A stretch of DNA of 64,000 nucleotides from Candidatus Eiseniibacteriota bacterium (GTDB taxonomy: Bacteria; Eisenbacteria; RBG-16-71-46; SZUA-252), in NCBI GenBank assembly GCA_005893265.1, contig VBOX01000085.1, positions 5,017-69,016 of the forward strand, given 5' to 3'. This document shows, piece by piece, positions 26,214 through 58,135 of the stretch (position 1 is its first letter; each line of letters begins with the position of its first letter). The position numbers were made by a program, and so were the translations under genes. The notes beneath the pieces were generated by a model. That model saw only the letters and a list, made by a program, of their open reading frames with translations, ran no database searches and had not been told where the DNA came from.

Positions 26214-27008
26214 TTAACCTTCTTGTCCGACCTCTTCCGGGCCCGGACTTTCCTCGGGCCTCGGGTTGAAGATCCCGGCGAGCTCGCTTCGAAGCTGTCC
26301 CGAGTCGAGCTTCCACTTCAGCTCTCCTTTGTACGCGATCGAGATCGCACCGGTCTCCTCCGACACGACGATGACGACCGCGTCGGTCTCCTCGGCCAGG
26401 CCCAACGCGGCGCGATGCCGGGTGCCGAGAAGGGGCGAGAGCCCGCGCGTCTGGCTCAGGGGTAGGATGCAGCCGGCCGCCACGATTTGATCGCCGCGGA
26501 TGATGGCCGCGCCGTCGTGGAGGGGGGAGTGCGGTGTGAAGACCGTCTCGAGCAGCTCCGAGCTGACGCGCGCCTCGAGCTTGGTGCCGGTCTCCACATA
26601 ATTGCGAAGTCCCATGTCCCGCTCCACCACGACGAGCGCCCCGCGCCGTTCCTCGCTCATCTCCTCCACCGATTTCAAGATCTCCCCGACGACGCCGTAA
26701 CCCTCGACGCGGATGAGCGCGCGGAGAAGGCGGTTTTGGCCGATGTGGGTCAGGAGCGCGCGCAGCTCGGGCTGGAAGAGGATGACGAAGAGGATGACCC
26801 AGACCGTCTTCACGCTGTTGATGATCCAGTTCAAGGCATTCAGGCGGAACCATTGCGCCACAATCGAGACAAATCCAATGACGATGAGCCCCACGAACAT
26901 CTGCGAGGCGCGCGTGCCCTTGATCATCGCGAACAGACGGTAGAAAAGAAACGCCACGATGAGAATATCGAGGACGTCGAGGAGGATCTGAGGCTTGATC
27001 GCGATCAT
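26214..27008 (-). CDS. cdaA: Diadenylate cyclase (c-di-AMP synthase), CdaA type
   Basis: Three N-terminal TM helices precede a DAC domain with DGA (HDGAAIIRGD) and RHRAALG motifs. The ATGA overlap links it with upstream folP. Confidence 0.8.
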   Translation of the reverse strand: MIAIKPQILLDVLDILIVAFLFYRLFAMIKGTRASQMFVGLIVIGFVSIVAQWFRLNALNWIINSVKTVWVILFVILFQPELRALLTHIGQNRLLRALIRVEGYGVVGEILKSVEEMSEERRGALVVVERDMGLRNYVETGTKLEARVSSELLETVFTPHSPLHDGAAIIRGDQIVAAGCILPLSQTRGLSPLLGTRHRAALGLAEETDAVVIVVSEETGAISIAYKGELKWKLDSGQLRSELAGIFNPRPEESPGPEEVGQEG

Positions 27009-31263: not shown

Positions 31264-31339
31264 TGGTGGCGGCGCAGGGATTCGAACCCCGGACCAAGGG
31301 ATTATGATTCCCCTGCTCTACCAGCTGAGCTACACCGCC
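31264..31339 (-). tRNA. tRNA with CAU anticodon (elongator tRNA-Met, or tRNA-Ile2 whose CAU is lysidinylated by TilS)
   Basis: 76 nt (GGCGGTGTAGCTCAGCTGGTAGAGCAGGGGAATCATAATCCCTTGGTCCGGGGTTCGAATCCCTGCGCCGCCACCA) folds as a cloverleaf with a 7-bp acceptor stem, a D-arm, an anticodon loop AUCAUAA, TPsiC GTTCGAATC and an encoded CCA. The G1-C72 pair argues against an initiator tRNA. Confidence 0.85.
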
Positions 31340-33784: not shown

Positions 33785-34566
33785 CTAGGGGCCTCCTGCG
33801 GGCAACGAAAAGTGGAAATCGGGCGACAGCTGACGGATCTCGCGAGCGAGTCCGCGCATCTGATCCAGGAGCTTCCGCTCGCCGGTCCGCTTCCATTCCG
33901 AGTAGGCATCAAGCAACAGGTCCTGCATATCCCGAAGCGATTGTTCCTTCGCGTCTTCGTCGACCTTGCGCTCGAGCCGAATCACATGCGCCTTCCGGAA
34001 CCGCTTCGAGACGCTCCAGTACTCGCCCTTCATGTGCGAGAGAAGCTTGTGGTAGCGCTCCAGCCCGAGCGTCAGCTTCTCCAGCACTGACGCGATCGTC
34101 TCGGCCGGATTCTCGAGCAGCTCGCCGTACGTATACGTGAAGTGATACCAGTTGGGGCTCCGCCCCACGTCCGCTTCCTCACCGGGGAGCATGCCGTCGC
34201 GTCGGCTCGGCACGTTGGGCCCGTGGTGCTCGAAGATGCCGATCGAGATGAGCAAGAGGTCGTCGGGCGTGCGAAGGATGAGGTATTTCAGGGCGCCGTG
34301 ATTCGAGTTGGCCAACCGGCGCCAGGCGCCGATGTCGTACCGGGAGAGAAGCCGGGTGCGCTCCGACGGTAGGGGCACCTGCGCCTCGAACTGGTCGCGC
34401 AACGCGCTCAAGTAAGCATCCACATCCTCCTGAGGAAGCGGGTCGCCGTTCTGCGGCGTGCCCTCCGCTTTCGTGAGGAGGAGGCAGTTCATCGTGAAAT
34501 AGAGTGTCGGCTGCAGCTTCCTCTGCACCGCCTTGCCTGCGAGATACTTTCGCGCTGCCGACATTG
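33785..34566 (-). CDS. Hypothetical protein
   Basis: 260 aa from the Met at 34566 (the track ORF extends to 34711). Composition is AT-richer than its neighbours. No confident family; a faint sulfotransferase-like motif (LILRTPDD) is too weak to call. Confidence 0.4.
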
Positions 34567-35050
34567 CCGTACTCCTTGGAAGGGCATCCCCTGCCCGGAC
34601 CGCATCCCATCCACATTCCGAATCGAGTACCACTGCATCCGGCGTGCCGCATGGGATGGGCCGTGTACGCATGGGGTGGCAACTCCTGCTGCAGCATGGA
34701 GATCGGGCCAAGTGAGATCGCGCGCGACATCGGGGTCACACGTGCCGATGTGTCGCGGTGTGGCTTGAAGGAACCGAGGAAACGGGCGTAAGCACCCATT
34801 TATATAGATGGGCCCGATCTTGCGTTTTGCGGTCCTACAAGCCTTTTGCAATTCGGACGGCGCCAAGCACTCTGCATTCGTTGGAGAAGCGGTCCGAAGA
34901 GACGAGGAGAAGTCACCCAATGTGCAAACGTACCCAGGCCTGCGGGCAGGATTTACACGAAACAGGTGGCACAGTATTTGCGGTTCATTCCGATTTCGCC
35001 ATAGCCACCGCATCAACGTCGCAACGGATCGAGGAGAAGTCGACGTGAAC

Positions 35051-35533
35051 ATGAACCTCGGCACGAGGGGCGCGCTTACCTTCCGGCTCGGTGATTTCTC
35101 GTTCGCCGTCCGTGTCGAGGAAGCCGGCGGAGTCCTCGACGCCGAACGGCTCGCGCATTTGCCGTGCGTTGCCGAGTCTGTCGCCGGGGTCGCAGCCTTT
35201 CGCGGCGAAATGGTCCCGGTCGTGGACCTCGCCGTATACCTAGGCATCGAGACCCAGGGCCTCCCGGGCCCCCGCTACGCACTCGTGCTCACCCGCGGCG
35301 TGGACCGATTCGCGCTGCTCATTCCTGAGATCCCCAAGCTGGTCCTGGGCCGCGACCTTCGCGAAGCGCCCGCTTCCGCTGTGGATCCCGAGCTGGGCGA
35401 GCTTTTCGAATCGGAGCTGGAGACGGACCAGGATCACTTCCACTGCCTCAACTACTGGAAGATTTTCGAATCCATGATTCCGCCCAGCGGCGCCGCTGGC
35501 CCGGGCCGGTCTTCCACGGAACGGGGGAACTAG
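35051..35533 (+). CDS. cheW: CheW-like coupling protein
   Basis: LTFRLGDFSFAVRVEEAGGV ... VAGVAAFRGEMVPVVDLA matches the CheW domain. The ATG is at 35051; GTG at 35045 is an alternative. Confidence 0.8.
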   Translation: MNLGTRGALTFRLGDFSFAVRVEEAGGVLDAERLAHLPCVAESVAGVAAFRGEMVPVVDLAVYLGIETQGLPGPRYALVLTRGVDRFALLIPEIPKLVLGRDLREAPASAVDPELGELFESELETDQDHFHCLNYWKIFESMIPPSGAAGPGRSSTERGN

Positions 35534-35535
35534 AG

Positions 35536-36858
35536 ATGCTAGGGCGGAGGGAAGACGACCGCGGGGGCAGTGCAGGACCGTCCGCGGTCCTCGTTACGTT
35601 CGCCACGGCAGTCCTGGCCGGGGCCGCCGGAATCATCCTTGCGGGGCTGGCCGCCTGGGTCTGGGTTGGGGCGATTACGTTCGGCGGCGCGTACCTCGCC
35701 TCGAGGACATCCAGGGGGGTGAAGGCCGAAAGCCCCCTCAAGGCGCGACGACTCCTCCTCATGCTCGACCGCGGTGGGTCCCAGGAGGCGAAGGCGCCGG
35801 TGGAGTTCACGGAGGAATGGGGGACGCTCTATGAGCGTCTGAACAAGATGGCCCTCGAGGCGCGGACCAGCTCGACCGCCCTTGCCGAGCTCGAACGATT
35901 CCGCCAGCAGGCCAATCTCGCCGCCTCCATTCTGAGGGACGGCAAGGACCCGCTGACCGAAGCGCCCGAGCTGCGCGTCGGACCGCTCCAGTCCCTGCTC
36001 GAAGGCATCAAGAGCGCGGCATCCACCCCGGTCGTGAGCCGGCTTCCGCTCGGGGAGGAAGAATTGATCGGCACGGACGGGGAGGGGCTGCCCCCGACCT
36101 GGCCCAAACCGACCGGGGAGTCATCCCCTCGCGGCCCCGCGATCGCGGAGGGAGTCGCGCGCGGGCTCCGGAACCTCGTTCAGGATCTCGAGGCGCTTGG
36201 CGCCACCCTGGGGGGCGAAGGCCGGAGGCCGACCACGCCGGGGGGCGAGAACCCGGATCTCAGGAGCCCAGCTCAGCTGGTGGATGCCGTCGTGCTCACC
36301 GCCGCGGACGGAATCGAGGACCTCGCGGCGGGCCTCATGCGGGCGAATGAGCTGGCGTCCGTCGCGGAGCGCGTGACCAATCGCGCAACCCTGCTCGCGT
36401 TGAACGCGGCGCTCGAGGCGACCCGCTCCGGCAGCGAAGCGTTCGCCGCCATCGCCGAGGAGACACGGCGGCTGGCCGAGTTCGCGCGGGAGGCCACCGA
36501 CACGATCTCGCGCCTTGCGTCCGAGATCGAGTACAAGGTCGGCGAAACGATCACCGCGATCCACGCCACCAGCGAGCACGCGAAGACGTCGTTGGCGGAG
36601 ATGTCCGGCGCCGCCACACCCCTCCCGGCGTCGGCACGGAGCGCGCGAGCCCAAATCGGGAAGCTGCTCGATCGGGCCCGCGAGCTTCAGCGAGCGCTCA
36701 ACACCCCCTCCTCCGACCGGGTCGGTGGGGACCCCATGGCCGGCCCGAATTCGGTGCAGGAACACGTGGAGAACGATCCGCCACCCGCCGACAAATTGCC
36801 TGCGGAGGGGATCTTGCTGATCGAAGGGCTGAAGCCCGGAGCCCGCCTCGAGAGCTGA
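35536..36858 (+). CDS. Methyl-accepting chemotaxis protein-like transducer (2 TM, MCP signalling domain)
   Basis: N-terminal TM helices precede a coiled-coil MCP signalling domain with a highly conserved tip (TNRATLLALNAALEATRSGSEAFAAIAEETRRLAE). Confidence 0.75.
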   Translation: MLGRREDDRGGSAGPSAVLVTFATAVLAGAAGIILAGLAAWVWVGAITFGGAYLASRTSRGVKAESPLKARRLLLMLDRGGSQEAKAPVEFTEEWGTLYERLNKMALEARTSSTALAELERFRQQANLAASILRDGKDPLTEAPELRVGPLQSLLEGIKSAASTPVVSRLPLGEEELIGTDGEGLPPTWPKPTGESSPRGPAIAEGVARGLRNLVQDLEALGATLGGEGRRPTTPGGENPDLRSPAQLVDAVVLTAADGIEDLAAGLMRANELASVAERVTNRATLLALNAALEATRSGSEAFAAIAEETRRLAEFAREATDTISRLASEIEYKVGETITAIHATSEHAKTSLAEMSGAATPLPASARSARAQIGKLLDRARELQRALNTPSSDRVGGDPMAGPNSVQEHVENDPPPADKLPAEGILLIEGLKPGARLES

Positions 36859-36886
36859 CCCCTCGCCCAGGCCATCGAGAGGCAGC

Positions 36887-38620
36887 ATGAGAACCGCCGC
36901 GTCCGAGTACCTAAGCCAAACTCAAATCATGTCTCGTCTGGGCGCGACCTTCGGTGCGCTCATTCACGAGCAGGTCGCGGCCGTACGCCGCTTCCTCGAC
37001 GATGAGACCAACTACGACTCGAGCGACTTCCTCCCGATCGCCGAGCTTGCGGTGCGGCTCGTCGAGCGGAGCGCCGAATGGCTCGAGGTCAGCGAGATCG
37101 CGAGCTTAGCCTTCGAGATGAGAGAGACATTGGCGCAATTGGGCCAGCTACGGCCCGCCGAGCGTCAGGACGTGGTCACGCAGTGCCGGGTCGCGCTGGA
37201 GGCCGAGGAGCGCCTGGTCGAGCGCCTGCGCTCCGACGGGTTCGCGGCCCTGGTCGATCACGCGGGCCTCGTGAGCGACGCCCTGGACGGTCTGCGCGCG
37301 AATCTGAAGCAGGCACGCGCGCAAGAGCTCAACTCGGCCCGCGGCATGATCGACGATGCCACGCCGGACGTGGGGAGCCAGGAAAACCTCCTTGCCCTTA
37401 CCTTCGAGATCAAGAACTCGCTCATTCATCAGAATGAACGGATCGGCTCGATGAGCGAGGTCGTCGGCGAGACGCTGGACGCCGCGCACTCGGCGCTGAC
37501 CGAGTGGGACATCGTCCAAAAGGCTGTGGAGCGCCAGCGGATCTCGCATGGAAAGAAGGCGAGCCAGCACCCGAGCCCCCTGGAGGGGAGGTCGCTGACC
37601 ATCAACCAGCGCCTCCAAGAGACGGCGTCGGGGCTCCGCACCATCTCCCATGAGCTGAACATGCTGTTGGGCCTTCAGTACTCGCTCGAGCGAAGGGCCC
37701 GCGATCTGGACGAGCATCTCCTGTGGGAATTCCTGGATCCACTCGACCGCTATCTCGACGACATGTATACCGCCGCCCAGTGCGGAAGCCGCGGCCAGAG
37801 GATGGGTCTCTCGATTCAGACCGGCGGGGTCGGTTTCGAGCCTGAGATCGGGGCGATCCTACTCCCGCTGGTGCTGCGGCTCCTCGAGACCATGCAGCCT
37901 TTGACCGAAGCCGGTGAGACGCTCGAGATCCGGATCACGGCTGCCCGGGAAGGGCTCGAGGCGCGGCTTCAAATCGAGGGTCCTATCACGCTCGATCTGG
38001 AGCCGGTCCGGCTCCTCGAGAACGCTCTGGAAAGCCTCGGGGGCTTTGCCTCGCTGAACGAATCGCCCGGCGCGGGGACGAGCCTGAGGTTGCAGTTCCC
38101 CATGGCGAGATCCCTCCGGAGCTTCTTGATCGTGGAAGCGGGGGGGCAACGGATCGCGCTCCCGTGGAGTGCGGTGGAGCGAATCTATTCGAGCGATTCC
38201 GATCCAGCCTGGACGTCAGCCGGCAGCCCCAGGCGAATCTACTCGCTTGCGGCGCTCTTCGGCCGCGATCCGGACGGGGCGCGGTCGGAGGCGAGTCCGT
38301 CGACGGGCACCGCGGGCCGCGGCTCGAGAACGGAGAACGGCGGCGAGGGGCATCCCCTGGCTGTGCTTCGGTCCGGGAGCGGGTCGGCGGTGGTCAGCTT
38401 CGACCGGCTCGTGTGGCGCGAGAACGCGCGTTTGAAGCCCCTTCCTCCGAGACTCTTTCCCGTCGAGGAAGTCCTCGGAGGCATCATGACTCCCGATTCC
38501 GGCATCACGCTCGTATTGAACCCAAGCGCCCTCCTGAAGCGCACGCGCGCGGAAGGCGACCCGCCCACGGACGCCGGGGGTCCCGACGCGCACGCCGACT
38601 CGGGAGGCGCCGCCTCGTGA
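36887..38620 (+). CDS. CheA-like protein with C-terminal CheW-like domain; ATPase region degenerate and no clear HPt histidine motif
   Basis: The domain order resembles CheA P3-P4-P5, and a C-terminal CheW-like domain is present (SFLIVEAGGQRIALPWSAVERI). The P4-like segment lacks a recognisable N-box Asn and DxGxG G1 box (LVLRLLETMQ...IEGPITL). No H..KG HPt motif was seen. Read by eye. Confidence 0.55.
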   Translation: MRTAASEYLSQTQIMSRLGATFGALIHEQVAAVRRFLDDETNYDSSDFLPIAELAVRLVERSAEWLEVSEIASLAFEMRETLAQLGQLRPAERQDVVTQCRVALEAEERLVERLRSDGFAALVDHAGLVSDALDGLRANLKQARAQELNSARGMIDDATPDVGSQENLLALTFEIKNSLIHQNERIGSMSEVVGETLDAAHSALTEWDIVQKAVERQRISHGKKASQHPSPLEGRSLTINQRLQETASGLRTISHELNMLLGLQYSLERRARDLDEHLLWEFLDPLDRYLDDMYTAAQCGSRGQRMGLSIQTGGVGFEPEIGAILLPLVLRLLETMQPLTEAGETLEIRITAAREGLEARLQIEGPITLDLEPVRLLENALESLGGFASLNESPGAGTSLRLQFPMARSLRSFLIVEAGGQRIALPWSAVERIYSSDSDPAWTSAGSPRRIYSLAALFGRDPDGARSEASPSTGTAGRGSRTENGGEGHPLAVLRSGSGSAVVSFDRLVWRENARLKPLPPRLFPVEEVLGGIMTPDSGITLVLNPSALLKRTRAEGDPPTDAGGPDAHADSGGAAS

Positions 38621-40377
38621 GAGCCCTCCAGATCGAGCGCTTGGGACCGCGGGACGATTTCCATTTCGCGCTCCGGGGAGTCATCGATGCGGAAGGGGCG
38701 CGCTCGATCGACCGCCTCCTCCTGAATTGCCAGGGACGAAGCGCGCCGTGCGTGCGACTCGATTTGGCGCAAGTCGAGAGCATCTCGACCCTCGGCATCT
38801 CCGTCTTGAGCCGTTGGGGCCGCGTCTACGAGAAGACCGAGCGCCGAATCGAGCTGAACGGTTTGGCGCCGGAGGTCCAGGCGACGCTTCAGCAGTCTGG
38901 GGCGATCGTCTACGTCGCGAACACGATGCCCACGGCGGGCGCCATCGCCGTCGCGGCTGAGACCGCTCCAAGTCCCCCCGTTCCAAGGCCGCCCGACCGT
39001 CTCGTCGAGCCTCCGGGGATCACGGTCGATCCGGATCCCGCGAGGCGTTTTCAGGCCACGCCGCTCGATGCCCCCACCGGCCCGGAGCTGGCTTCGCTCC
39101 AATCGAAGCTCAAGCGGAAGATCGTCGAATTCCGAAATCTGTTCGAGATCACCCAAGCGCTCAACCTGGCGCAAGACCTGGACGAGGTTCTGAACCTCTT
39201 CGGCCTGAGCGTCATGGGCCAGTTCGGCTTGGAGCGGCTCGCGCTCTTTCTCAGCGATCCCGACAAGGACGGCCACTTGGTCCCCCGCCACGTGCGCGGG
39301 TTCGCACAAAACCATTTTCAGGATTTCACCGTTCCGTGGACCGCGTTTCGAAGGTTCGCCCCCGATCGCTCGTTCGTGGCCCTTCACGAAATGGAGGGCA
39401 AGCAGAGCGGCTCCGAGGAGATCGAGGCCTTGCGGGAGTCGGGGTTCGAGTGGGCGATCCTGCTCTGGGTCCGTCGCGATCTGGAGGGGGTGCTCTTCCT
39501 CGGGGGCCGCGGCAGCCGGAAGAAATTCGAGGAAGATGAGCGGGACCTCTTGACCATTCTCTCGCACCAGGGAGCCGTTGCGATCTCGAACGCAAGGGTT
39601 CAGCGGGCCCAGGAGGAGCGGAATCTCGGGCTCGTGCGCGGGATGATGGCGCTGATCGAGAGCCGCGATGGATACGCGAAGGGCAGCACCGAGCGCGTCG
39701 TCCGGTACGTGAGCGCGGTGGCTCGCCTTCTCGATTATCCGAAGGAATACCTGAAATCGCTCGTGTACGGAGCGGTGCTTCGCGACATCGGGATGATCAC
39801 GGTGAGCGGGCTCATCTTGAAGAATCCCGCGCATCTCTCGGAAGAGGAGTGGGCGCTCATCAAGCAGCACCCCCTTCGCGGGGCCCAGATCCTCGAGGAG
39901 ATGAACTTCCCCAAGGAAGTGATCGCGATCGTCTTGAATCACCACGAGCGCTGGGGCGGGGAAGGATACCCGAACGGGATCCGCGGCCAGGAAATCCCGC
40001 TGGGTGCGCGGATCGTCTCGCTCGTGGACGCCTACGTCGCCATGACGAGCGAGCGGCCCTATCGCCGGGCGCTCCCCTACGAGAAAGCGCGTCAGGTGAT
40101 CGCGGAAAACTGGGGGAGTCCCTTCGATCCGAGCGTCATCGAGGTGTTCCTGACCGTTCTCGACAAGATCGAACGCCGTACGCGCTTGCGCGAAGGCCAA
40201 CCCCTGCCCGAAGCGGCCGGAACCGCGGCGGGCGCGGAGCCCGGGCCAGCAGGCGGCTCGGCGGCTCTGGATCCTCTCGCCTCGGGCGCCACGATTCCCC
40301 TTGAGAAGGACCCGGCTCCGGACCGCTCTACCAAGTTCGGGTCCGGGCCCGCGATGGAAGCGGAGACACGCCGATGA
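38617..40377 (+). CDS. STAS - GAF - HD-GYP domain protein (HD motif apparently degenerate: RD instead of HD)
   Basis: The GTG start overlaps the previous stop (GTGA). An N-terminal STAS/anti-sigma-antagonist-like domain is followed by a GAF domain and an HD-GYP domain with HHERWGGEGYP. The HD dyad reads LRDIGM and the first His-containing motif reads KGSTERV. Confidence 0.75.
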   Translation: MRALQIERLGPRDDFHFALRGVIDAEGARSIDRLLLNCQGRSAPCVRLDLAQVESISTLGISVLSRWGRVYEKTERRIELNGLAPEVQATLQQSGAIVYVANTMPTAGAIAVAAETAPSPPVPRPPDRLVEPPGITVDPDPARRFQATPLDAPTGPELASLQSKLKRKIVEFRNLFEITQALNLAQDLDEVLNLFGLSVMGQFGLERLALFLSDPDKDGHLVPRHVRGFAQNHFQDFTVPWTAFRRFAPDRSFVALHEMEGKQSGSEEIEALRESGFEWAILLWVRRDLEGVLFLGGRGSRKKFEEDERDLLTILSHQGAVAISNARVQRAQEERNLGLVRGMMALIESRDGYAKGSTERVVRYVSAVARLLDYPKEYLKSLVYGAVLRDIGMITVSGLILKNPAHLSEEEWALIKQHPLRGAQILEEMNFPKEVIAIVLNHHERWGGEGYPNGIRGQEIPLGARIVSLVDAYVAMTSERPYRRALPYEKARQVIAENWGSPFDPSVIEVFLTVLDKIERRTRLREGQPLPEAAGTAAGAEPGPAGGSAALDPLASGATIPLEKDPAPDRSTKFGSGPAMEAETRR

Positions 40378-42041
40378 CCCCCGAGAGCTTGAAACCCGCT
40401 CTCGAGACCCGCGAGGGCAAGCAGAAGCGGACGATCCTCGTCGTCGACGACGACCGGCGCGTCGTGGATCTCCTGCAAATCTCCCTGTCGCAGAACGGCT
40501 ACCGCGTGACGACCGCTTCCACCGGCGAGGAAGCGCTGGAGGCGGTGCGCCGGGAGACTCCGGATATGGTGATTCTCGATTTGAGGCTCCCGAAGAAGAA
40601 CGGGTATGAAGTCTGTGCCGCGCTGAAGAGCTCGAAGGAGACCTCCGCGATCCCGGTCATCATGGTCTCCGCGACCGCCGAGGTCGACGCGCGTCTCCAG
40701 GGCCTCATGCACGGCGCGGACGACTACCTGACGAAGCCGTTCTCGCCGAAGGAACTCCTGATCAAGGTGCGTCGCATTTTCGAGCGGATGGAAAAGGCCG
40801 AGGTCCTGAGCACCAAGAACCGGGAGCTCGAGACGGAGGTGGCCCGGAACCGCGAGGACCTGGTCGTTCGGAACAAGGAGCTCCGCTTCCAGGTGTTCAG
40901 CCTCGAGACCCTGATGGGCCTCACCCACCAGCTCAATTCCTCGCTCGATCTCGACTCCCTGATGGGTACGGTCATTCTGAGCGTAGTGGGCCAGCTCCGC
41001 GTCAACTCCGCCTGCCTCTTCCTGACCGACTCGCGCGAAAATCCGAAACGGCTGGATGCCTGGACCTTCAAGGGCGTGAAGGAGGAGCTGGTTCGTTCGA
41101 TCACGTTCGCATACGACGATGATTTCGCCCACGCGATCCGGCCGGTCGACGGCGAGGAAGCGCGTCCGATCCGGCTGCAAGACCTGTCGGAGGACCCCTC
41201 CCTCGAGCACGACGTGGGGCCACTCTACGCGGCCGGATTCACGCTTGCATGCCCGGTCATGATGAAGGAGAAGCTCACCGCCATTCTGGCCGTCGGCGAG
41301 AAGGTGAGCGGACAGGACTTTCAGTCCACCGATCTCGAGATGGTGAAAGCGCTCTCCGAGTCGGCGGGCATCGCGATCGAGAACGCTCGGTTGTTCAAAG
41401 ACCTCCAGGATACGTATCTCGCCACCGTCCGGGTCCTGGTCTCGACGATCGAGGCGAAGGATCCCTACACGCACGGGCACACCGAGCGCGTGGCGCAGTA
41501 CGCGGTCGGGATCGCGAGGGCGATGGATTTCGGCTCGGACGAGATCCAGACGATCCAGTTGGGTGCGATCCTCCACGACATCGGCAAGCTCCACACGAGC
41601 GACTCGATCCTGCATAAGCCCGGAGCGCTCACCGACGAAGAGTGGCGCCTCGTCAAGGCACACCCGGTTCGCGGCGCGCAAATGCTCCAAGGAGTGAAGT
41701 TCCTCGAGAAGGCGACCGACCTGGTCCGCCACCACCACGAGCGCGTCGATGGAAAGGGCTACCCGGACGGGCTGCGCGGCGACGAAATCACCATCGGGGC
41801 GAAGATCGTGAACGTGGCGGATGCGTTCGACGCGATGACGACGGAGCGTCCCTATCGCGCGGGCCTGACCATCGAGCAGGCTGTCGATCAGATGCAGCAA
41901 AAGGCCGGCACCCAATTTGCCGCCGAAGTGGTCGAGGTGCTCGTGCGCGCGCTCCAAGACGGGAGCATCCAGTTGATCCGGAATCCCACGGTCTTCGACG
42001 ATTCGGTCAGGGCAACCACCTCCTTCGACCGCGGCCAGTAG
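40374..42041 (+). CDS. Response regulator: REC - GAF - HD-GYP (c-di-GMP phosphodiesterase, motifs intact)
   Basis: REC domain (ILVVDDD..., phospho-acceptor D in MVILDL, and K in LTKP). GAF domain. HD-GYP domain with HGHTERVA, LHDIGK and HHHERVDGKGYP all present. The ATGA overlap links it with the upstream gene. Confidence 0.85.
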   Translation: MTPESLKPALETREGKQKRTILVVDDDRRVVDLLQISLSQNGYRVTTASTGEEALEAVRRETPDMVILDLRLPKKNGYEVCAALKSSKETSAIPVIMVSATAEVDARLQGLMHGADDYLTKPFSPKELLIKVRRIFERMEKAEVLSTKNRELETEVARNREDLVVRNKELRFQVFSLETLMGLTHQLNSSLDLDSLMGTVILSVVGQLRVNSACLFLTDSRENPKRLDAWTFKGVKEELVRSITFAYDDDFAHAIRPVDGEEARPIRLQDLSEDPSLEHDVGPLYAAGFTLACPVMMKEKLTAILAVGEKVSGQDFQSTDLEMVKALSESAGIAIENARLFKDLQDTYLATVRVLVSTIEAKDPYTHGHTERVAQYAVGIARAMDFGSDEIQTIQLGAILHDIGKLHTSDSILHKPGALTDEEWRLVKAHPVRGAQMLQGVKFLEKATDLVRHHHERVDGKGYPDGLRGDEITIGAKIVNVADAFDAMTTERPYRAGLTIEQAVDQMQQKAGTQFAAEVVEVLVRALQDGSIQLIRNPTVFDDSVRATTSFDRGQ

Positions 42042-42582
42042 GCTACGGCGGCGCTCCTCCCGTTGACGCCCGGCGAAGCCGCCGAGCACCAGCCGTTTGA
42101 CTCACCCCACGAGATCCCGGTCCGCCTCCTCGCGTCAACAAGCGTCGCCATCGTCCAATGCGGCCTCCCGCGGCCGGGGCTCCTCCGCCCCCCGTTAGTC
42201 CCTGTGGCATAGAGGCTTCCTCGCGGTGTGGGCTGCCAGCCGGTGATCGGCACGCCCGTTGCGATGCTGCGATGGCGGCGGGACGCTCTGTTTGGGGGAG
42301 AGCACTGCGGAGTCGGGGCCGCGGTGTGATGAAGCCGAGGAGGCAAAGAGGCGTCCCGCCTTGAAGTTATAGTGGGGGTAGGCGCGGTCGGTAGACTCGG
42401 CATTGGCGTTTCCAGCCGGTCCTCCGTGGTCGCGCCGCCCTCATTTTTCGTTGACCCATCCCGCCGCGTTCGATATCTTCTTCCGCTCGAAGTCGACGGT
42501 ACTATTCCTCCTGCAAACATGGACGTTGGGCCTTCTGCGGCGTTCCGTTCGCCGCCGCGAGTTCGGCGCGCGGAGATCCCAG

Positions 42583-51698: not shown

Positions 51699-52736
51699 GT
51701 GTCACGCGTGAACCAGTCCTCACCCACGCCCGAGACTGGACGAATCCTCGTCATCGAGGACGATCCCAAGCTCCGGTTCATTCTGGAGAAGCAACTAAGC
51801 GACGCTAAGGACGCGCAGTACGAAGTGCGCACCGCGGAGGACGGGGTGCGCGGGCTGCAGGAAGTTCGTCGCGACGCACCCGAGCTGATCCTGCTCGACG
51901 TGATGATGCCCGGTCTCGACGGGTACGAGGTGTGCCGGCAGCTCAAAGCGAATCCGCTCACGTCGCGTATCCCGATCATCTTTCTCACCGCCAAGTCGAC
52001 GTTCGAGGATCGGATCCACGGTCTCGAGCTTTACGCCGACGACTACATCACGAAACCGTGGGCGCAGAGCGAGCTTCTCTTCCGGGTCAGGAATCAGCTC
52101 AAGACCCGGCGAGCCCAGCTCCAATCCAACGCCCTGACCGGGCTGCCCGGAAACGTGCTCATCGAGACGGAGCTCTCGCGCAGGATCGCGCAAGGAGAGA
52201 AGTTCGCGTTCCTGCACATCGACCTGGATTACTTCAAGGCCTACAACGACTACTACGGCTACGCGCGCGGCGACGCGGTCATCCGCTTCGTGGCCGCGCT
52301 GCTCCACGAGCAGATCCAGCGCTACGGGATCGTGGGGGACTTCGTGGGTCACATCGGCGGAGACGACTTCGTCGTGATCACGATGCCGGATCGCGCCCAG
52401 CTCGTCGCGGACGCGGTTCACGCGAGCTTCGACGCCCGGATCACGGAACACTACGACGACCTGGACTTGAAGCGCGGCCACATCACCGTCCTTTCGAGCC
52501 GGCAAGGGGGTATCAAGAAGTTCGGCATGATGTCGATCACGATCCTGATCGTGAGCAACGTGGGCCGGGACATCCAGCACAGCGCCCAGGTCAGCGACAT
52601 CGCGAAGGAGCTCAAGAAAAAGGGCAAGGCGATGGTTGGGAGCGTGGTCGTGCCCGACAGGCGACTGGACGGCACGCCGATCATGCCCGCCGCCGAGCTC
52701 CCCGCGTCCGACGGGTCGGAACCACCGGCATGTTGA
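51699..52736 (+). CDS. Response regulator REC - GGDEF-family domain (motif GGDDF)
   Basis: REC domain with D in ILLDVMMPGLDG and K in ITKP, followed by a GGDEF-type domain with the signature HIGGDDFVV. The start is GTG at 51699. Confidence 0.8.
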   Translation: MSRVNQSSPTPETGRILVIEDDPKLRFILEKQLSDAKDAQYEVRTAEDGVRGLQEVRRDAPELILLDVMMPGLDGYEVCRQLKANPLTSRIPIIFLTAKSTFEDRIHGLELYADDYITKPWAQSELLFRVRNQLKTRRAQLQSNALTGLPGNVLIETELSRRIAQGEKFAFLHIDLDYFKAYNDYYGYARGDAVIRFVAALLHEQIQRYGIVGDFVGHIGGDDFVVITMPDRAQLVADAVHASFDARITEHYDDLDLKRGHITVLSSRQGGIKKFGMMSITILIVSNVGRDIQHSAQVSDIAKELKKKGKAMVGSVVVPDRRLDGTPIMPAAELPASDGSEPPAC

Positions 52737-55111
52737 GCCGCCCCGATGAGAATCCCGGCCGCGGCGCCGGCTCGGCCATCCGACTCCTCCCGGGACTCTC
52801 CAGCCTCAGCTTCGCCGTTCAATCCGCGTTCGACGCGCAGGGCCTCGTGGCGGCGGTGGCGCGGCACGTCCTGGAGCTCGCGCGGGCCGACTCATTCTCG
52901 CTCCTTCTGCTCGACTACGAAACCGGCGAGCTGCACGGGGATCACTTCGAGCACGGCACGCACGGGCCCACGGGAACGTGCCGGGTCACGCCGCGTCCCG
53001 GTGGCTTTCTCGCGCAGGTGCTGCGACGGGAGACGCTCATCGTCGAGGACGCGCTCCGCATGGAGGCCGCCGATTGGAAGGAGCTCCATTGGGGCGGGCG
53101 GGTGCCCCACGCTCTCGTCGGGGTACCGATCATCGTGGGTACCTCGCTCCTGGGCGTAGCGCTCTTGGGCTTCAACCGGCCGCTCAAGGCGAGTGCGCGC
53201 AGGCGCCGGGCGCTGCTCTTCCTCGCCGATCAGATCGGTCTCGCGGTCGACCGGATCCGCACGCACGCGGAGCTCGAGCAGAAGACGGTCCAACTCGAGG
53301 AAGCCAGCGTGTCTCTCCGGCGGATCGACGAGATGAAATCGGAGCTGATCTCGGTCGTGTCGCACGAGCTTCGGACTCCCCTGACCTCGATCAAGGCGTA
53401 TACCGAGACCCTGCTCGACAACGTGCACAATCCCGCCTTCACGATGCACGAGAAGTTCCTCGGGATCATCAACGAGGAATGCGACCGCTTGACGAGAATC
53501 GTGAACGACGTGCTCGACCTGAGCCGGATGGATTCCGGGCGGCGGAGGCTCAAGTCGGAACCGGTCGCGCTGGACCGCCTGCTCGACGAGGTCCTGCCGA
53601 CCGTAGGGCCGCAGCTCGCGCCCAGGCGCCTCTCCGTCGTGCCCGACTTCGCCCCTGGGCTCCCTCTGATCGAGGCGGATCCCGATCTACTGAAGCAGGT
53701 GCTGGTGAACCTCATCACCAACGCGGCCAAGTTCTCCCGCGAAAGCTCCCCCATCACGATTCACGCGAGGACTGTGGCCGATCGAATGCACATCGTCGTC
53801 GAGGACCATGGGATGGGGATTCCCGCCGACAAGCTGAACCGCGTGTTCGAGCGCTTCTTCCGGGTCGAAGAGGGAGGAGCGGAGCGGATCGGCGGATCGG
53901 GGCTGGGGCTCGCGATCGTGAAGAGCGTCGTGGAGCTTCACGGCGGCACCGTTCGCGTCGAGAGCGACCTGGGACGGGGGAGCCGGTTCGTGATGGAGCT
54001 TCCCTTGGTCCAGCGCGGATTCCGGAATCTGATGCGCTCGCTCGAGCCGTTCTTCGAGATGCCGGAGCTGCGCACCCTTCTCTCGAGCGCGGTCGAGATG
54101 GTGGCCGAGGTGATGGAGGCGCGGAACGTCTCGATCATGTTCTTCAACGAGGACGGCACCGAGCTTCACATCCGCGCGGCGCACGGCCTCGACCCGGACA
54201 TGGTGGCGAGGGCCCGGGTCAAGACCGGGGCGTCGATTGCGGGGTGGGTCGCCCAGACCAACGAGAACCTCCTCGTGAACGACATCGAAAACGACCGGAG
54301 ATTTCGCAAGCTGAACCATCCGCAGTACGAGACGAAGTCGCTCCTGTGCGTGCCGCTCCGGATCTCCGGCGAGACGGTCGGGGTCGTGAACGTGAGCAGC
54401 AAGTCGACGGGGCTTCCGTTCGATCCCGACGATCTGAGTCTCCTGGTCGCGATCTCGAAGCGGGTTGGCACCGCGCTGGAGCGCGTGCGGTCGGCCGGTT
54501 CCTCCGGGGACGTTTACACGACCCTGAATACCATCCGCACCGTCATCCGCGCCAAGCGGAGCTACTCCCTCTGGAGCTCGCGCCGCGCGTTCAAGCTCGC
54601 GACCGACCTCGGCCGGAAGCTCGGACTCGCGGAGGAGGAGCTCGAGGTTCTCGGCTACGTGGCGCGCGTCCACGACGTCGGCATGCTCGCGGTGGGCGAG
54701 GACCTCGTCTTGAGCTCACGGCGGTGGACGGAGCAGGAGCGGCGCCGCGTCGAGACGCATCCGCGCGACGGCGTTCGCGTGCTTCAGCCGATCGAATTCG
54801 CCTCTCGCGCGAACGAAATCATCCTGAGCCACCACGAGCACTTCGACGGCCACGGCTATCCGCGTGGCCTCGCCGGGGAGGAGATCCCGCTCGCGGCCCG
54901 TATCCTGGCGGTCGTGGACGCGTTCGAGGCCATGACGCTGGGACGGCCCTACCGCGATTCCATACCCGAGGCTGAGGCGCTCGCCGAAGTGAGGCGGTGC
55001 TCCGGGACGCAGTTCGATCCACGGGTCGTGAAGGAGTTCGAGCGTCTGATCGCCCGGAAGGGGACGGTCCGCGCCAGCTCCTTGCTGGCGCACCGGAAGG
55101 TATCCACATGA
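52730..55111 (+). CDS. Hybrid sensor: GAF - HisKA/HATPase_c histidine kinase - GAF - HD-GYP
   Basis: HisKA H-box (SHELRTPLTSIKAY), HATPase N/G boxes (NLITNAAKF, DHGMGI, GGSGLGLAI), a second GAF, then HD-GYP (ARVHDVGM, HHEHFDGHGYP). The start ATG 52730 overlaps the previous stop (ATGTTGA). Confidence 0.8.
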   Translation: MLSRPDENPGRGAGSAIRLLPGLSSLSFAVQSAFDAQGLVAAVARHVLELARADSFSLLLLDYETGELHGDHFEHGTHGPTGTCRVTPRPGGFLAQVLRRETLIVEDALRMEAADWKELHWGGRVPHALVGVPIIVGTSLLGVALLGFNRPLKASARRRRALLFLADQIGLAVDRIRTHAELEQKTVQLEEASVSLRRIDEMKSELISVVSHELRTPLTSIKAYTETLLDNVHNPAFTMHEKFLGIINEECDRLTRIVNDVLDLSRMDSGRRRLKSEPVALDRLLDEVLPTVGPQLAPRRLSVVPDFAPGLPLIEADPDLLKQVLVNLITNAAKFSRESSPITIHARTVADRMHIVVEDHGMGIPADKLNRVFERFFRVEEGGAERIGGSGLGLAIVKSVVELHGGTVRVESDLGRGSRFVMELPLVQRGFRNLMRSLEPFFEMPELRTLLSSAVEMVAEVMEARNVSIMFFNEDGTELHIRAAHGLDPDMVARARVKTGASIAGWVAQTNENLLVNDIENDRRFRKLNHPQYETKSLLCVPLRISGETVGVVNVSSKSTGLPFDPDDLSLLVAISKRVGTALERVRSAGSSGDVYTTLNTIRTVIRAKRSYSLWSSRRAFKLATDLGRKLGLAEEELEVLGYVARVHDVGMLAVGEDLVLSSRRWTEQERRRVETHPRDGVRVLQPIEFASRANEIILSHHEHFDGHGYPRGLAGEEIPLAARILAVVDAFEAMTLGRPYRDSIPEAEALAEVRRCSGTQFDPRVVKEFERLIARKGTVRASSLLAHRKVST

Positions 55112-57687
55112 TTCCGTCCGTGGAGCTGGTCTGGGCCCTCGCGGCCGCCGTGCTCCTCATCATGGAGCAGCTGCGCCATCGCCGCTCGCTTCGGCACGAG
55201 CTCAAGTCGCTCCGCTCGTCCTACGACGCCGTGATCCACCGGAACGAGGAGCTGACCCAGGCAAGCGACAAGATGAGCGACCTCTACCGATACCAGCTCC
55301 TCACGAGCCGCAAGCGCGCGGCCAGGATCAAGAAGGTGCTGGAGATCGCGACGAGCATCAATTCGAACCTCTCGTTGGACAAGGTCCTCCATGAGATCGT
55401 GCACGCGGTCTCGGACGCGGCGGGGTTCCGGATGGTCCTGCTGCGCGTCCTCAATGAGTCGAGCGGGGCGTTCGAGGCTCGGGCGTTCGCGGGGCTGAAC
55501 CGAGAGGCGATCCGAAAGCTCGAGCAGCATCGAATCCCACGCTCCGAGTTCGACAGCTGGCTGAAGGAGGAGTTCCGGGTCAGCCGCTCCTACTTCATCA
55601 GCCACGACCGGAAGTTCTGGGGGAAGGAAGACGACGAGGGCTTCACGCCGGACTTGGGGATCCGCAAGGAGGGGGAGTGGCATCAGGAGGACGTCCTCTT
55701 CGTCCCGCTCTATACGAAAGACGGCGCGACGATCGGCTACCTCTCCGTCGACGATCCGGTGGACCGCCGGCTCCCTTCCCGGGAGACCGTCGAGACCTTG
55801 GAGATCCTCGCGACCCATGCGGTCGTGGCCATCCAGAACGCGAGCCTCTACGAGCGTCTGAACCAGAGCATGGGTCAGCTCGAGGAGGCGACCGAGCGCG
55901 CCGAGGAGCTGAACGACCTCAAGTCCTCCTTCGTCTCGACCGTTTCCCACGAGCTCCGGACGCCCTTGACCGCGATCCGCGCGTACGTGGAAGCGCTCCT
56001 CGAGAGCGTGGGCTCACCCAACATCGAGATGCAGCGTCAGTTCTTGGGCGTGATCGACGACCAGAGCCTGAAGCTCCGGCGACTCATCGATTCCGTTCTC
56101 GAGCTGTCTCAGCTCGAGTCGGGCCGGTTCCGCATGAACCGCGAGCCGTTCAACCTGGTCGCCCTGACCGACGAGGTCGTCGAGGCTCTGCACCCGATGG
56201 CCGATCCGAAAAGGATCACGATCCGGACCGAGTCGGAGGTGCCCGAGATCGTGGTCGAGGCGGACCGCGCGCTGATGAAGCGCGTCCTCAACAACCTGGG
56301 AAGCAATGCGATCAAGTTCACCCACGAGGGCGGGACGGTCACCTTACGGACGAAAAACGAGGGGCGCGCGGTGCGCATCCAGGTGGAGGACACGGGGATC
56401 GGGATCCCGAAAGAGGAAATCGAGAAGATCTTCGACAAGTTCTATCAGATCGACAGCTCCCTGTCGCGCGAGTATCCGGGCGTGGGCTTGGGCCTCACCG
56501 TCTCGAAGAGCATCATCGAATGGCACGGTGGGGAAATCCTGGCGGAGAGCGAGACGGGTGTGGGATCGCGCTTCACCGTGCTCATGCCGGTCACCCCCGG
56601 GGACGCGAACGTAATCACCCACGCCACCTGGACTCCCTCCCGCTCGGTCTCGGATCACTTGACCCGGCTCACGGTGGAGATGATCGCTGAGGTCATGAAC
56701 GCGCGCACCGCGTCCTTCATGCTCGTGGACGAGGAGAAGTCCGAGCTCTACATACGCGCCGCCCGCGGCCTGCGTGAAGAAGTGGTCTGCGGCACCCGCG
56801 TCAAGATCGGCGACTCGATCGCCGGGTGGGTGGCGAAGCACGGCCAGCCGCTCCTCGTCACCAACATCGAGGAGGACCCGCGGTTCGGCAGGCCGAACGG
56901 CCATCAATACGAGACCAAGTCGCTCCTTTCGGTCCCGGTCAAGATCGGGGGACGGGTGGTCGGCGTGATCAACATCAACAACAAGGTCTCGTGCACTCCA
57001 TTCACGGAGGACGACCGCGCGCTCCTCTCCTCCCTCTCGGATCGGGTCGCCTTGGCCTGGCAGCGCGTCTCCGACCACGAACGCACGTCCGACCGAACCG
57101 AGGAGACCGCGAAGGCTCTGGCCGCGATCATCGAGAACGCGCGGCGCAGCCGGCTCAAGCTGAGCTCCGGCTCGATGGCGGGCCGGGCGGTGGCGCTGGC
57201 GCGGAAGATGGAGCTCAAGGATGAGGACGTGGAGGTGCTCGCCTACGTCGCGAGCGTCCACGACGTCGGGATGTCGCAGATTGACCTTTCCGTCCTGCAG
57301 GAGCCGGGCAAGTTGGACGACGAGGCCTGGGCCGAAGTGGCGCTCCATCCCCTGCGCTCCGCGGAGATCGTGAAACCGATCGAGTTCCAGGAGCAGGTGA
57401 CCGAAATCATTCTGGCGCACCACGAGCGGATGGATGGACGTGGATACCCACGGGGCATCAAGGGGGACCGAATTCCCCTCGGCGCCCGGATCATCGCCGT
57501 TCTCGACGCCTACGAGTCGATGACGATGGGGAGGCCCTACCGGCACGCGATGAGCCACCAGGACGCGGTCCAAGAGCTGCGTCAGTGCAAGGGAACCCAG
57601 TTTGACTCGAGGGTGGTGGAGGCGTTCGCGCAACTTCCTGAGTTTCAGGAGAATACAAAGCTAGTTCGGGCTGGAGAACCGGCTTAA
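55108..57687 (+). CDS. Paralogous hybrid sensor: TM - GAF - histidine kinase - GAF - HD-GYP
   Basis: Same architecture as the upstream gene, with an N-terminal TM helix. H-box SHELRTPLTAIRAY, G-boxes DTGIGI/GVGLGL, HD-GYP (ASVHDVGM, HHERMDGRGYP). ATGA overlap at 55108-55111. Confidence 0.8.
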   Translation: MIPSVELVWALAAAVLLIMEQLRHRRSLRHELKSLRSSYDAVIHRNEELTQASDKMSDLYRYQLLTSRKRAARIKKVLEIATSINSNLSLDKVLHEIVHAVSDAAGFRMVLLRVLNESSGAFEARAFAGLNREAIRKLEQHRIPRSEFDSWLKEEFRVSRSYFISHDRKFWGKEDDEGFTPDLGIRKEGEWHQEDVLFVPLYTKDGATIGYLSVDDPVDRRLPSRETVETLEILATHAVVAIQNASLYERLNQSMGQLEEATERAEELNDLKSSFVSTVSHELRTPLTAIRAYVEALLESVGSPNIEMQRQFLGVIDDQSLKLRRLIDSVLELSQLESGRFRMNREPFNLVALTDEVVEALHPMADPKRITIRTESEVPEIVVEADRALMKRVLNNLGSNAIKFTHEGGTVTLRTKNEGRAVRIQVEDTGIGIPKEEIEKIFDKFYQIDSSLSREYPGVGLGLTVSKSIIEWHGGEILAESETGVGSRFTVLMPVTPGDANVITHATWTPSRSVSDHLTRLTVEMIAEVMNARTASFMLVDEEKSELYIRAARGLREEVVCGTRVKIGDSIAGWVAKHGQPLLVTNIEEDPRFGRPNGHQYETKSLLSVPVKIGGRVVGVININNKVSCTPFTEDDRALLSSLSDRVALAWQRVSDHERTSDRTEETAKALAAIIENARRSRLKLSSGSMAGRAVALARKMELKDEDVEVLAYVASVHDVGMSQIDLSVLQEPGKLDDEAWAEVALHPLRSAEIVKPIEFQEQVTEIILAHHERMDGRGYPRGIKGDRIPLGARIIAVLDAYESMTMGRPYRHAMSHQDAVQELRQCKGTQFDSRVVEAFAQLPEFQENTKLVRAGEPA

Positions 57688-57733
57688 GGCGCCGATAGAA
57701 CCCATGCCGGGCAGGCAGGAGGAGGTGAGTCGG

Positions 57734-58135
57734 ATGTCCAAAGGGAAAATCCTGGTCGTGGATGATGAAATCTACATTGTCCACATCCTGGACTTCAGTT
57801 TGGGGATGGAAGGCTACGAGGTCGTAACGGCACTGGATGGCGAACAGGCGCTCGAAAAGGTGAAGAACGAGAAGCCCGACCTCATCGTGCTCGACATCAT
57901 GATGCCGAAGCTGGACGGATACGAAGTTTGCAAGAGCATCAAGTCGAGCGCCGCGACCCAACATATTCCGGTGATCCTCCTCTCGGCCAAGGGACGAAAC
58001 GTCGACCAGAAGCTCGGCTTCGACGTGGGCGCGGACGATTACATCACGAAGCCGTTCAGTCCCCGAAAGCTGGTCGAGCGCATCAACCAGCTGCTCGGCC
58101 AGACCGTCACCGAGCGACCCGCTCCCTCCGCGTAG
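57734..58135 (+). CDS. Single-domain response regulator (CheY-like)
   Basis: MSKGKILVVDDE ... DLIVLDIMMP ... ITKPF. RBS GGAGGAGGTGAG. 133 aa. Confidence 0.75.
   Translation: MSKGKILVVDDEIYIVHILDFSLGMEGYEVVTALDGEQALEKVKNEKPDLIVLDIMMPKLDGYEVCKSIKSSAATQHIPVILLSAKGRNVDQKLGFDVGADDYITKPFSPRKLVERINQLLGQTVTERPAPSA

Follow-up and report, generated by a model that had tools for sequence, protein, structure and literature searches.

A conserved operon of Eisenbacteria joins chemoreceptor-type genes and a CheA homolog without kinase motifs to two HD-GYP proteins

The subject of this analysis is a five-gene operon located in a 64,000-nucleotide (nt) stretch of DNA from a Candidatus Eiseniibacteriota bacterium (contig VBOX01000085.1 of assembly GCA_005893265.1, positions 5,017 to 69,016 of the forward strand), referred to below as the window. 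We found that this operon combines cheW, a gene for a methyl-accepting chemotaxis protein (MCP) and a gene for a CheA homolog with two genes encoding HD-GYP proteins, one of which carries a STAS and the other a REC domain. The five genes are co-directional, translationally coupled and placed behind a promoter element conserved across the phylum. The CheA homolog, called pseudo-CheA here, keeps structural elements of CheA and has lost the chemistry of a kinase; because of this combination we propose a kinase-independent, array-like complex. More precisely, and with a confidence that is evenly balanced, we suggest that the operon encodes a chemoreceptor-type complex which has lost its kinase and is coupled to the degradation of cyclic di-GMP (c-di-GMP) through protein contacts. 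The five open reading frames (ORFs), which run on the + strand from 35045/35051 to 42041, and their domains are listed below (window positions; aa, amino acids).

35045..35533, + strand: cheW (gene 1), 162 aa from GTG 35045, or 160 aa from ATG 35051.
35536..36858, + strand: MCP-like receptor (gene 2), 440 aa, from Pfam MCPsignal and hydropathy.
36887..38620, + strand: pseudo-CheA (gene 3), 577 aa, degenerate CheA-type fold.
36917-37237, + strand: P1/HPt-like four-helix bundle of pseudo-CheA, aa 11-117, with a linker helix after it.
37376-37732, + strand: P3-like long helical hairpin of pseudo-CheA, aa 164-282.
37742-38101, + strand: truncated P4-like domain (small alpha/beta) of pseudo-CheA, aa 286-405.
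38114-38530, + strand: P5/CheW-like beta-rich domain of pseudo-CheA, aa 410-548.
38617..40377, + strand: STAS-GAF-HD-GYP protein with a degenerate active site (gene 4), 586 aa, from Pfam and ortholog residue counts.
38659-38904, + strand: STAS domain of gene 4, aa 15-96 (STAS_2 E 1.5e-10, STAS E 2.5e-7, both above gathering scores).
39172-39591, + strand: GAF domain of gene 4, aa 186-325 (weak GAF matches).
39643-40137, + strand: HD-GYP domain of gene 4, aa 343-507 (HD_5 3.5e-32; HD also matches).
40374..42041, + strand: REC-GAF-HD-GYP response regulator (gene 5), 555 aa, from Pfam and NCBIfam.
40434-40769, + strand: REC domain of gene 5, aa 21-132 (Response_reg 3.1e-30).
40947-41381, + strand: GAF domain of gene 5, aa 192-336 (GAF_2).
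41433-41924, + strand: HD-GYP domain of gene 5, aa 354-517 (HD_5 2.7e-40; HD also matches).

An earlier examination of the letters and translations without database searches (the sequence-only reading) had already named a CheW, a membrane MCP and STAS- and REC-linked GAF-HD-GYP proteins, and these assignments were borne out by Pfam and NCBIfam matches and by hydropathy. It had also described the CheA-like protein as P3-P4-P5, which was right as far as it went and incomplete, as a P1/HPt-like four-helix bundle is present too. In Pfam, pseudo-CheA gives a lone sub-threshold CheW-like (P5) match at residues 413-552, and NCBIfam and Pfam scans of the whole protein and of three segments of it yielded nothing usable beyond this weak P5 signal. 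A profile of 25 homologs (alignment A1) searched against PDB matched the CheA proteins of Thermotoga maritima and Escherichia coli (E 1.4e-5) over the end of P4 and the whole of P5, and hhalign to E. coli CheA covered the P4-end/P5 span only. The AlphaFold model has a mean predicted local distance difference test score (pLDDT) of 74, rising to about 90 in the first bundle and in the P4 and P5 cores. Its best Foldseek matches are the CheA P3-P4-P5 structures 6s1k_A (2.8e-17) and 1b3q, while the structural neighbours of the P4-like domain include DivL (4q20) and RetS (6dk8). Based on these fold matches, we assign to gene 3 a P1-P3-P4-P5 architecture that lacks P2. The gene descends from CheA.

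In canonical CheA the phospho-accepting His sits on helix B of P1. The corresponding helix of the P1-like bundle has no His in any of the 25 aligned members or in the 7 divergent loci inspected; it reads VRLVERSAEWL in essentially all members, the most divergent group (44% identity) included, with 10 of its 19 columns invariant. Nor does any other part of the family alignment have an invariant His column. Asn and Asp stay below 80% in every column between residues 292 and 505, hence the N box has lost its Mg-binding Asn and the G1 box its Asp. In the model, about 5 residues separate the hairpin (strands 345-365) from helix 371-384, at a place where canonical CheA, on our own reading of the E. 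coli sequence, presumably has about 60 residues with the G1, F and G2 boxes and the ATP lid. When the P4 and P1 regions were forced into a pairwise alignment with E. coli CheA, the noise precluded residue mapping, and the degeneracy was judged by family-wide residue censuses together with the fold matches. Scanned in segments, the protein gave no Hpt, H-kinase_dim, HisKA or HATPase_c Pfam signal at E<=10. What is present, then, is the P5 domain and the P3 dimerisation hairpin; the phospho-accepting His of P1 and the N, G1, F and G2 boxes and ATP lid of P4 were not found. The claim of the sequence-only reading that the CheA-like protein lacks the HPt H..KG motif and the G1 box is thus upheld by the censuses, the segmented Pfam scan and the fold matches, and a search for the opposite, i.e., intact HPt and ATP motifs in an already described class with HD-GYP output, found neither.

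The same observations bear on the idea that gene 3 is a cryptic kinase which binds nucleotide in a non-canonical way, uses a non-His or poorly conserved His acceptor and phosphorylates gene 5 as WspE does WspR. The overall CheA architecture and the REC-containing enzyme in the same operon would suit such a role, as would His125 and His181, which are conserved in about 90% of the sequences. We nevertheless find it highly improbable, given the missing invariant His, the His-less P1-like helix B, the lack of conserved Asn and Asp in a P4-like domain with no room for an ATP lid, and the silence of HATPase_c even at E<=10.

Pseudo-CheA does not look like a decaying gene. Its ratio of nonsynonymous to synonymous substitution rates (dN/dS) is 0.12-0.17, compared to 0.05-0.08 for the IMP dehydrogenase (IMPDH) gene, and in 25 aligned sequences about 140 of the 577 columns do not vary. 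Conservation is spread over the protein, with the P1-, P3- and P4-like domains conserved as much as P5 (mean column identity 0.68-0.75). The most conserved stretch (0.87) is the P3-P4 junction, aa 255-299; in CheA, this junction transmits receptor control. Taken at the sequence level, these values point to a maintained pseudokinase under purifying selection. The reading of the CheA-like gene as a pseudogene was rejected on the basis of dN/dS.

The HD-GYP proteins were compared by taking orthologs from the related loci and counting residues at the motif positions (n=31 for gene 4, n=24 for gene 5). In gene 5, the metal ligands H..H, HD, H, HHE, GYP and the distal Asp are intact in 24/24 orthologs, as the sequence-only reading had held for this protein, and its REC domain has D69, S99 and K121 in 24/24 and D25 and D26 in 23/24 (one gap). 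Gene 5 is consequently a predicted active c-di-GMP phosphodiesterase. The nearest NCBIfam model of both HD-GYP domains is the REC-type c-di-GMP phosphodiesterase NF053512, which gene 5 matches with E 1e-62, below the curated full-length cut-off of 400 bits. It is also the most conserved gene of the operon (70-97% identity, mostly 71-89%; dN/dS 0.07-0.10). In the one complete chromosome (OY969801.1, L020 13440-15049), the gene 5 ortholog is split over three frames and remains about 72% identical throughout; the splits most likely represent long-read indel errors and not a pseudogene.

In turn, the HD dyad of gene 4 reads RD (aa 389-390, nt 39781-39786) in 31/31 orthologs. This agrees with the substitution first seen by eye, and the first metal His is lost as well, being S, N, G, A or T in 31/31. 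The protein retains HHE, GYP and the distal Asp, and KNPAHLS is invariant. We take this last motif to be the equivalent of the KPG motif with its c-di-GMP-contacting Lys; in PmGH, the KPG-motif Lys (Lys235) contacts c-di-GMP. Against the STAS model TIGR00377, gene 4 scores 23.8 bits, below the cut-off of 53.45. By a SpoIIAA alignment made by eye, T58 (ESISTLG) would presumably be the phosphorylatable position; 28/31 orthologs have Thr or Ser here, and another residue stands in place of the Asp before it. Neither a GHKL Ser kinase of the RsbW/SpoIIAB type nor a PP2C phosphatase occurs in the window, the sole GHKL-fold domain near gene 4 being the degenerate P4 of gene 3. When the STAS-GAF-HD-GYP protein was used as a query, the best 120 of 445 homologs were orthologs at least 58% identical to it, mostly from Eisenbacteria where an organism was named. 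The STAS-GAF-HD-GYP fusion looks new.

As for the receptor side, CheW matches Pfam PF01584 with E 7.8e-13 (48.7 bits vs a cut-off of 23.5). Its start is probably GTG 35045, 6 nt before ATG 35051, because this start matches the 162-aa product called in three assemblies. The cheW gene is present at the same position in all loci and has a dN/dS of 0.11-0.22. The MCP has an MCPsignal match above the gathering score (E 1e-10) and a single hydrophobic stretch of about 40 aa (aa 16-55, nt 35581-35700), found in all full-length orthologs, which we predict to form an N-terminal transmembrane hairpin; a periplasmic domain is absent. The middle of the protein is a variable linker rich in Pro and Gly, and strong conservation is confined to aa ~246-345 in 29 orthologs, i.e., to the hairpin tip (aa 246-345, nt 36271-36570). 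Aligned to the tips of T. maritima TM1143 and Tsr, it lacks two residues at the U-turn, and it retains the LLALNAA...EETRRLAE core. From how long the conserved part is and where the Pro/Gly-rich segment lies, the hairpin seems shorter than the shortest named heptad class known to us.

The retained P5-like and CheW folds and the preserved core of the MCP tip leave room for a different arrangement, in which pseudo-CheA and CheW insert into a conventional Che array encoded elsewhere, in the manner of ParP and CheV, and tether the HD-GYP proteins there, so that a real CheA phosphorylates REC. Non-kinase baseplate components are known in Vibrio (PMC7534058), and one preprint reports a metagenome-assembled genome of Eisenbacteria with moderate chemotaxis protein abundance and cites nutrient-attracted motility for others (10.1101/2025.11.25.690425). 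We regard such an add-on as unlikely, since the operon has its own CheW and its own receptor, the latter devoid of a sensor domain and atypical in its shortened tip, and since all these genes are inherited together, a pattern that fits an insulated complex better; moreover, the 64-kb window holds no canonical che gene. A plain localisation scaffold would also be compatible with the receptor, in which no sensor domain can be recognised and conservation is limited to about 100 residues of the tip. MCP, CheW and pseudo-CheA would then do no more than position the phosphodiesterase pair at the membrane or cell pole, and regulation would come from REC phosphorylation and GAF ligands, inputs which these proteins already possess. 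This we consider rather doubtful: for a simple anchor it is unexpected that the P1-, P3- and P4-like domains are conserved as much as P5, and that the peak of conservation falls on the P3-P4 junction, in CheA the region of receptor control.

The operon layout supports the view that the five genes act as one unit. All five are present and tightly linked, as had been proposed, with spacings that needed correction: the gaps are 2 nt between cheW and MCP (TAG-AG-ATG, read from the sequence) and 28 nt between MCP and the CheA-like gene, the latter carrying a GAGAGG ribosome-binding site, instead of 3 nt. The overlaps reported for the other two junctions were correct, namely GTGA between the CheA-like and STAS genes and ATGA between the STAS and REC genes. 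Upstream of cheW we located two conserved features.

34967..34981, + strand: sigma-54 type -24/-12 element TGGCAC-AGTAT-TTGC, about 65-70 nt upstream of cheW.
34759..34852, no strand assigned: four invariant blocks TGTGGCTTGAA, GGGnGnAnnCnCCCATT, TGCGnnnTGCG and CAnGAGCCTTTTGCAA in the divergent intergenic region (ten-locus alignment A3).

The pattern TGGCACN5TTGC has one exact match in the 64-kb window, the one listed above, vs 0.13 expected. The element recurs 58-79 nt upstream of cheW in 31/31 loci with upstream sequence, exactly in 20, with one mismatch (TGGCAT or CGGCAC) in 10 and with two mismatches in 1, and its GG-N10-GC core is intact in all 31. In the cheW upstream alignment of ten loci (A3), mean column identity is 65% and GTGGCAC-N5-TTGC is invariant. 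The operon is thus, by these sequence criteria, probably sigma-54-dependent, with the element as a putative promoter. No Sigma54_activat protein was found among the annotated ORFs of the window. The four invariant blocks lie 115-210 nt further upstream of the element and could be enhancer sites for a sigma-54 activator or, alternatively, belong to the promoter of the divergent gene; among them are a TGCG-N3-TGCG repeat and, in the consensus, the inverted repeat GGGTG..CACCC. Rfam showed no riboswitch or other RNA element upstream of cheW, and simple sigma-70 and terminator scans stayed at background level. One-mismatch sigma-54-like matches number six in the window vs 2.2 expected. Two of them read CGGCAC-N5-TTGC on the + strand: one, at 13472-13486, lies about 110 nt upstream of an unknown ORF (13596-13940), and the other, at 42248-42262, within the gap between gene 5 and atpI.

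Using tblastn, we observed the order outer-membrane protein (OMP)-IMPDH-orphan gene (- strand)-cheW-MCP-pseudo-CheA-STAS_HDGYP-REC_HDGYP in every long-enough locus of 36, and almost all of these loci are labelled Candidatus Eisenbacteria. Such a recurring order in related loci indicates that the grouping is more than chance. Across the 36 loci, pseudo-CheA identity ranges from 44% to 95%. Among its 172 database homologs the best 120 are 53-95% identical with few fragments, have no precomputed Pfam domain and come with few named organisms, mostly Eisenbacteria. An exhaustive profile search of 1.84 billion cluster representatives retrieved three full-length pseudo-CheA clusters plus fragments, and the next matches were ordinary CheAs aligned over residues 375-546 only. 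As far as these sequence collections reach, the pseudo-CheA family is confined to this lineage, the uncultured phylum Eisenbacteria. In the more distant genomes (L017, L020 and L026), two adjacent REC-domain matches were seen on the - strand at ~18660-19470, about 4 kb downstream of the operon.

Since the flanking OMP and IMPDH genes are syntenic as well, one may ask if the CheA-like gene is a degenerating relic and the five genes stay together merely through conserved local order in a small phylum. This appears very improbable to us in view of the dN/dS and invariant columns of pseudo-CheA, the start/stop overlaps, the close spacing which the operon genes keep in distant loci, and the dedicated, conserved sigma-54 promoter upstream of cheW. 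In addition, gene 5 is followed by a 480-bp non-coding stretch, and the next genes, those of the atp operon, adjoin in closer relatives only.

For the proposed kinase-independent complex, we envisage the following course of events. As the MCP is devoid of a periplasmic sensor, its cue would come from the membrane or the cytoplasm. MCP, CheW and the P5 domain of pseudo-CheA would assemble an array-like baseplate, and a conformational change of the receptor would be relayed through pseudo-CheA by protein-protein contact, not by phosphotransfer. The His-less helix B of the P1-like bundle is the best candidate to hold the REC domain of gene 5, because canonical CheA docks receiver domains there. 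A second tether may be provided by the STAS domain of gene 4, which would bind the GHKL-fold remnant of P4 or some other part of the baseplate. Genes 4 and 5 might pair via their GAF and HD-GYP domains, with the degenerate gene 4 subunit as a c-di-GMP-binding or allosteric regulator of active gene 5, as HnoD is for HnoB. Phosphorylation of the gene 5 REC domain by another kinase would be a second input; given the motif losses in gene 3, the phosphate is predicted not to come from there, and candidate donors are two GAF-HisKA-HATPase-GAF-HD-GYP hybrids encoded 10 kb downstream. The net output would be a stimulus-dependent and probably localised fall in c-di-GMP. The full sequence of steps, i.e., an array signalling without CheA phosphorylation, P1 docking REC, the baseplate docking STAS and an allosteric switch leading to local c-di-GMP hydrolysis, is put forward tentatively. 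With respect to the sequence-only suggestion of a scaffold/pseudo-kinase with sensor and effector proteins, we infer the outputs and this division of labour from the gene content.

The downstream hybrids, which are the downstream histidine kinases mentioned in the sequence-only reading, belong to a second tightly coupled signalling operon (window 51699-58135, + strand), which is composed as follows.

51699-52736, + strand: REC-GGDEF-like gene.
52730-55111 and 55108-57687, + strand: tandem paralogous hybrids GAF-HisKA-HATPase_c-GAF-HD-GYP.
57704-58135, + strand: single-domain REC.

A 7-nt overlap precedes the first hybrid and an ATGA overlap joins the two. It is unusual for a histidine kinase to be fused to HD-GYP. 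Both hybrids retain HD, HHE, GYP and the distal Asp and, as seen by eye, seem devoid of the first His of H..HD (SSRRAFKL and SMAGRAV stand there). The GGDEF-like domain at 51699-52736 has the active-site motif GGDDF and matches positions 5-105 of the 161-position Pfam GGDEF model; judging from the sequence, it may not be an active cyclase.

Several points weigh against the proposed complex. Gene order is conserved along with the flanking housekeeping genes (OMP-IMPDH), and synteny alone therefore overstates the functional linkage. The 2-residue deletion in the MCP tip and the poor conservation of most of the MCP and of the C-terminal half of CheW mean that a canonical array geometry is not assured. 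The contacts between the P1-like bundle and REC, between STAS and the P4-like domain and between genes 4 and 5 are all ones which we infer. Finally, gene 4 could retain residual activity, since some RpfG proteins may be able to do without at least one of the metal-binding His residues of HD-GYP (10.1101/2021.11.05.467447).

Chemoreceptor arrays are understood as kinase-control machines, and autophosphorylation of CheA is the end point of every characterised chemosensory class that we know of, whether it serves flagellar motility, type IV pili or, like Wsp, an alternative function. Against this background, it is surprising to see a CheA that is conserved in full length yet kinase-dead and is connected with HD-GYP proteins. 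If the proposal is true, binding is enough for an array to pass on signals, which would be a new logic of signalling for chemoreceptor, CheW and CheA, and the operon offers a natural system which separates the scaffold and allosteric roles of CheA from the catalytic one. A c-di-GMP-degrading output and an active/degenerate HD-GYP pair would likewise be added to the chemosensory outputs. Domain censuses of the MiST/Pfam type would see an orphan CheW and an MCP only, as the CheA homolog has no domain match above threshold, and such systems may thus be under-counted.

The surroundings of the operon are otherwise ordinary in composition, with a G+C content of about 65% throughout the window and no break at the operon. 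Database sequences that match the window are contig VBOU01000086.1 (GCA_005893175.1) and three assemblies from soil metagenomes. Housekeeping genes upstream of the operon comprise cdaA, folP, ftsH, tilS, a tRNA gene, an outer-membrane beta-barrel gene and IMPDH; the tRNA gene (31267-31339, - strand) is the sole Rfam match in the window at the gathering threshold. Within the cdaA-folP-ftsH-tilS string, 8 kb upstream of the operon, the gene at 26214-27008 (- strand) encodes a CdaA-type diadenylate cyclase, i.e., a synthase of cyclic di-AMP (c-di-AMP), and genes for c-di-AMP and c-di-GMP are in this way near neighbours in the window. The downstream neighbour is the atpI-BEFHAGD operon. A functional tie to ATP synthase was rejected because of the 480-bp gap after gene 5 and the restriction of this neighbourhood to closer relatives. 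One gene always stands between IMPDH and cheW.

33785..34564, - strand: divergent orphan gene, 259 aa.

The orphan is 65-96% identical across the related loci and has 49 database homologs, each at least 70% identical. Pfam, PDB-sequence and fold searches gave no match for it, and its conservation is unusually high for a gene with no known relatives. Elsewhere in the window, a LexA-like repressor gene (4037-4813), a small ORF and a Y-family (IMS/DinB-type) polymerase gene (5549-6745) follow one another on the + strand (4037-6745) in what looks like an SOS mutagenesis cassette.

With regard to known systems, the operon is built from chemosensory parts and is not a member of an existing class, because it has neither the phospho-His nor the ATP-binding domain, two defining features of a chemosensory pathway, and no local CheR/CheB; no cheR or cheB was found in the operon, among the annotated ORFs of the 64-kb window or in the 10-kb flanks of related contigs. 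Closest in logic is the Wsp system of Pseudomonas (WspA-F, output WspR), which belongs to the class of alternative cellular functions (ACF). Both share an operon of a membrane MCP, a CheW-type coupler, a CheA-type protein and a REC-linked c-di-GMP enzyme; the Wsp operon also has CheR and CheB homologs. Unlike Wsp, the system described here has a CheA devoid of the His and the ATP site, HD-GYP hydrolases, no local cheR/cheB and an added STAS-fused pseudo-enzyme. In Wsp, the stimulus is thought to be sensed via the membrane region and not at a periplasmic ligand site, WspE is an active kinase phosphorylating WspR, and the output is a GGDEF cyclase which makes c-di-GMP (PMC8846402). The chemosensory systems known to modulate c-di-GMP are of the ACF and type four pili (TFP) classes (PMC8846402).

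The sequence-only reading did not recognise the arrangement as a known one. This holds for the STAS-GAF-HD-GYP fusion and not for STAS genes in chemosensory clusters as such, which are known (PMC7184735). STAS genes inside the chemosensory cluster are a trait shared with the ancestral stage 1/2 F7 clusters (Vibrio cholerae cluster III, Pseudomonas aeruginosa and relatives). In stage 1 of the ancestral F7 clusters, anti-sigma-factor antagonists occur together with a serine phosphatase, and the STAS-bearing F7 clusters were proposed to serve stress response and not motility (PMC7184735). They encode a stand-alone STAS protein with a serine phosphatase, an active CheA, CheY, CheR, CheD and CheB, whereas in the present operon the STAS domain is part of a GAF-HD-GYP protein, CheA is catalytically dead, and neither a phosphatase nor a Ser kinase is encoded nearby.

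The active/degenerate pairing also has its counterparts. In HnoB/HnoD of Shewanella oneidensis and in ECA3548, a degenerate HD-GYP modulates an active phosphodiesterase or c-di-GMP levels by binding (10.1101/2021.11.05.467447). HnoD is a REC-HD-GYP protein with SE for HD and QLE for HHE, and it works with an EAL enzyme that is under the control of an H-NOX kinase; gene 4, in contrast, is STAS-GAF-(RD)GYP with intact HHE, a presumed HD-GYP partner and a chemoreceptor-like module upstream. REC-GAF/PAS-HD-GYP regulators are a recognised group (10.1101/2021.11.05.467447), and gene 5 shares the architecture of the RpfG/RpfX family (REC-HD-GYP, REC-PAS/GAF-HD-GYP) with all active-site residues. Yet, known RpfG/RpfX members pair with HisKA-type kinases such as RpfC, and none has been described as sharing an operon with cheW, an MCP and a CheA homolog; the HD-GYP architecture survey in the same work mentions neither STAS, CheW, CheA nor chemotaxis.

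As for pseudo-CheA itself, our literature search found no description of a CheA in which P1, P3, P4 and P5 persist while both the His and the ATP site are lost. ParP and CheV join arrays without kinase activity (PMC7534058), but unlike pseudo-CheA they carry a CheW-like domain only. DivL and RetS share with it the idea of a kinase fold used as a non-catalytic scaffold, although they are DHp-CA kinases and not CheA homologs. For the STAS domain of gene 4, a parallel is offered by SiaABCD, in which a STAS-type partner switch controls a c-di-GMP enzyme (PMC9239204).

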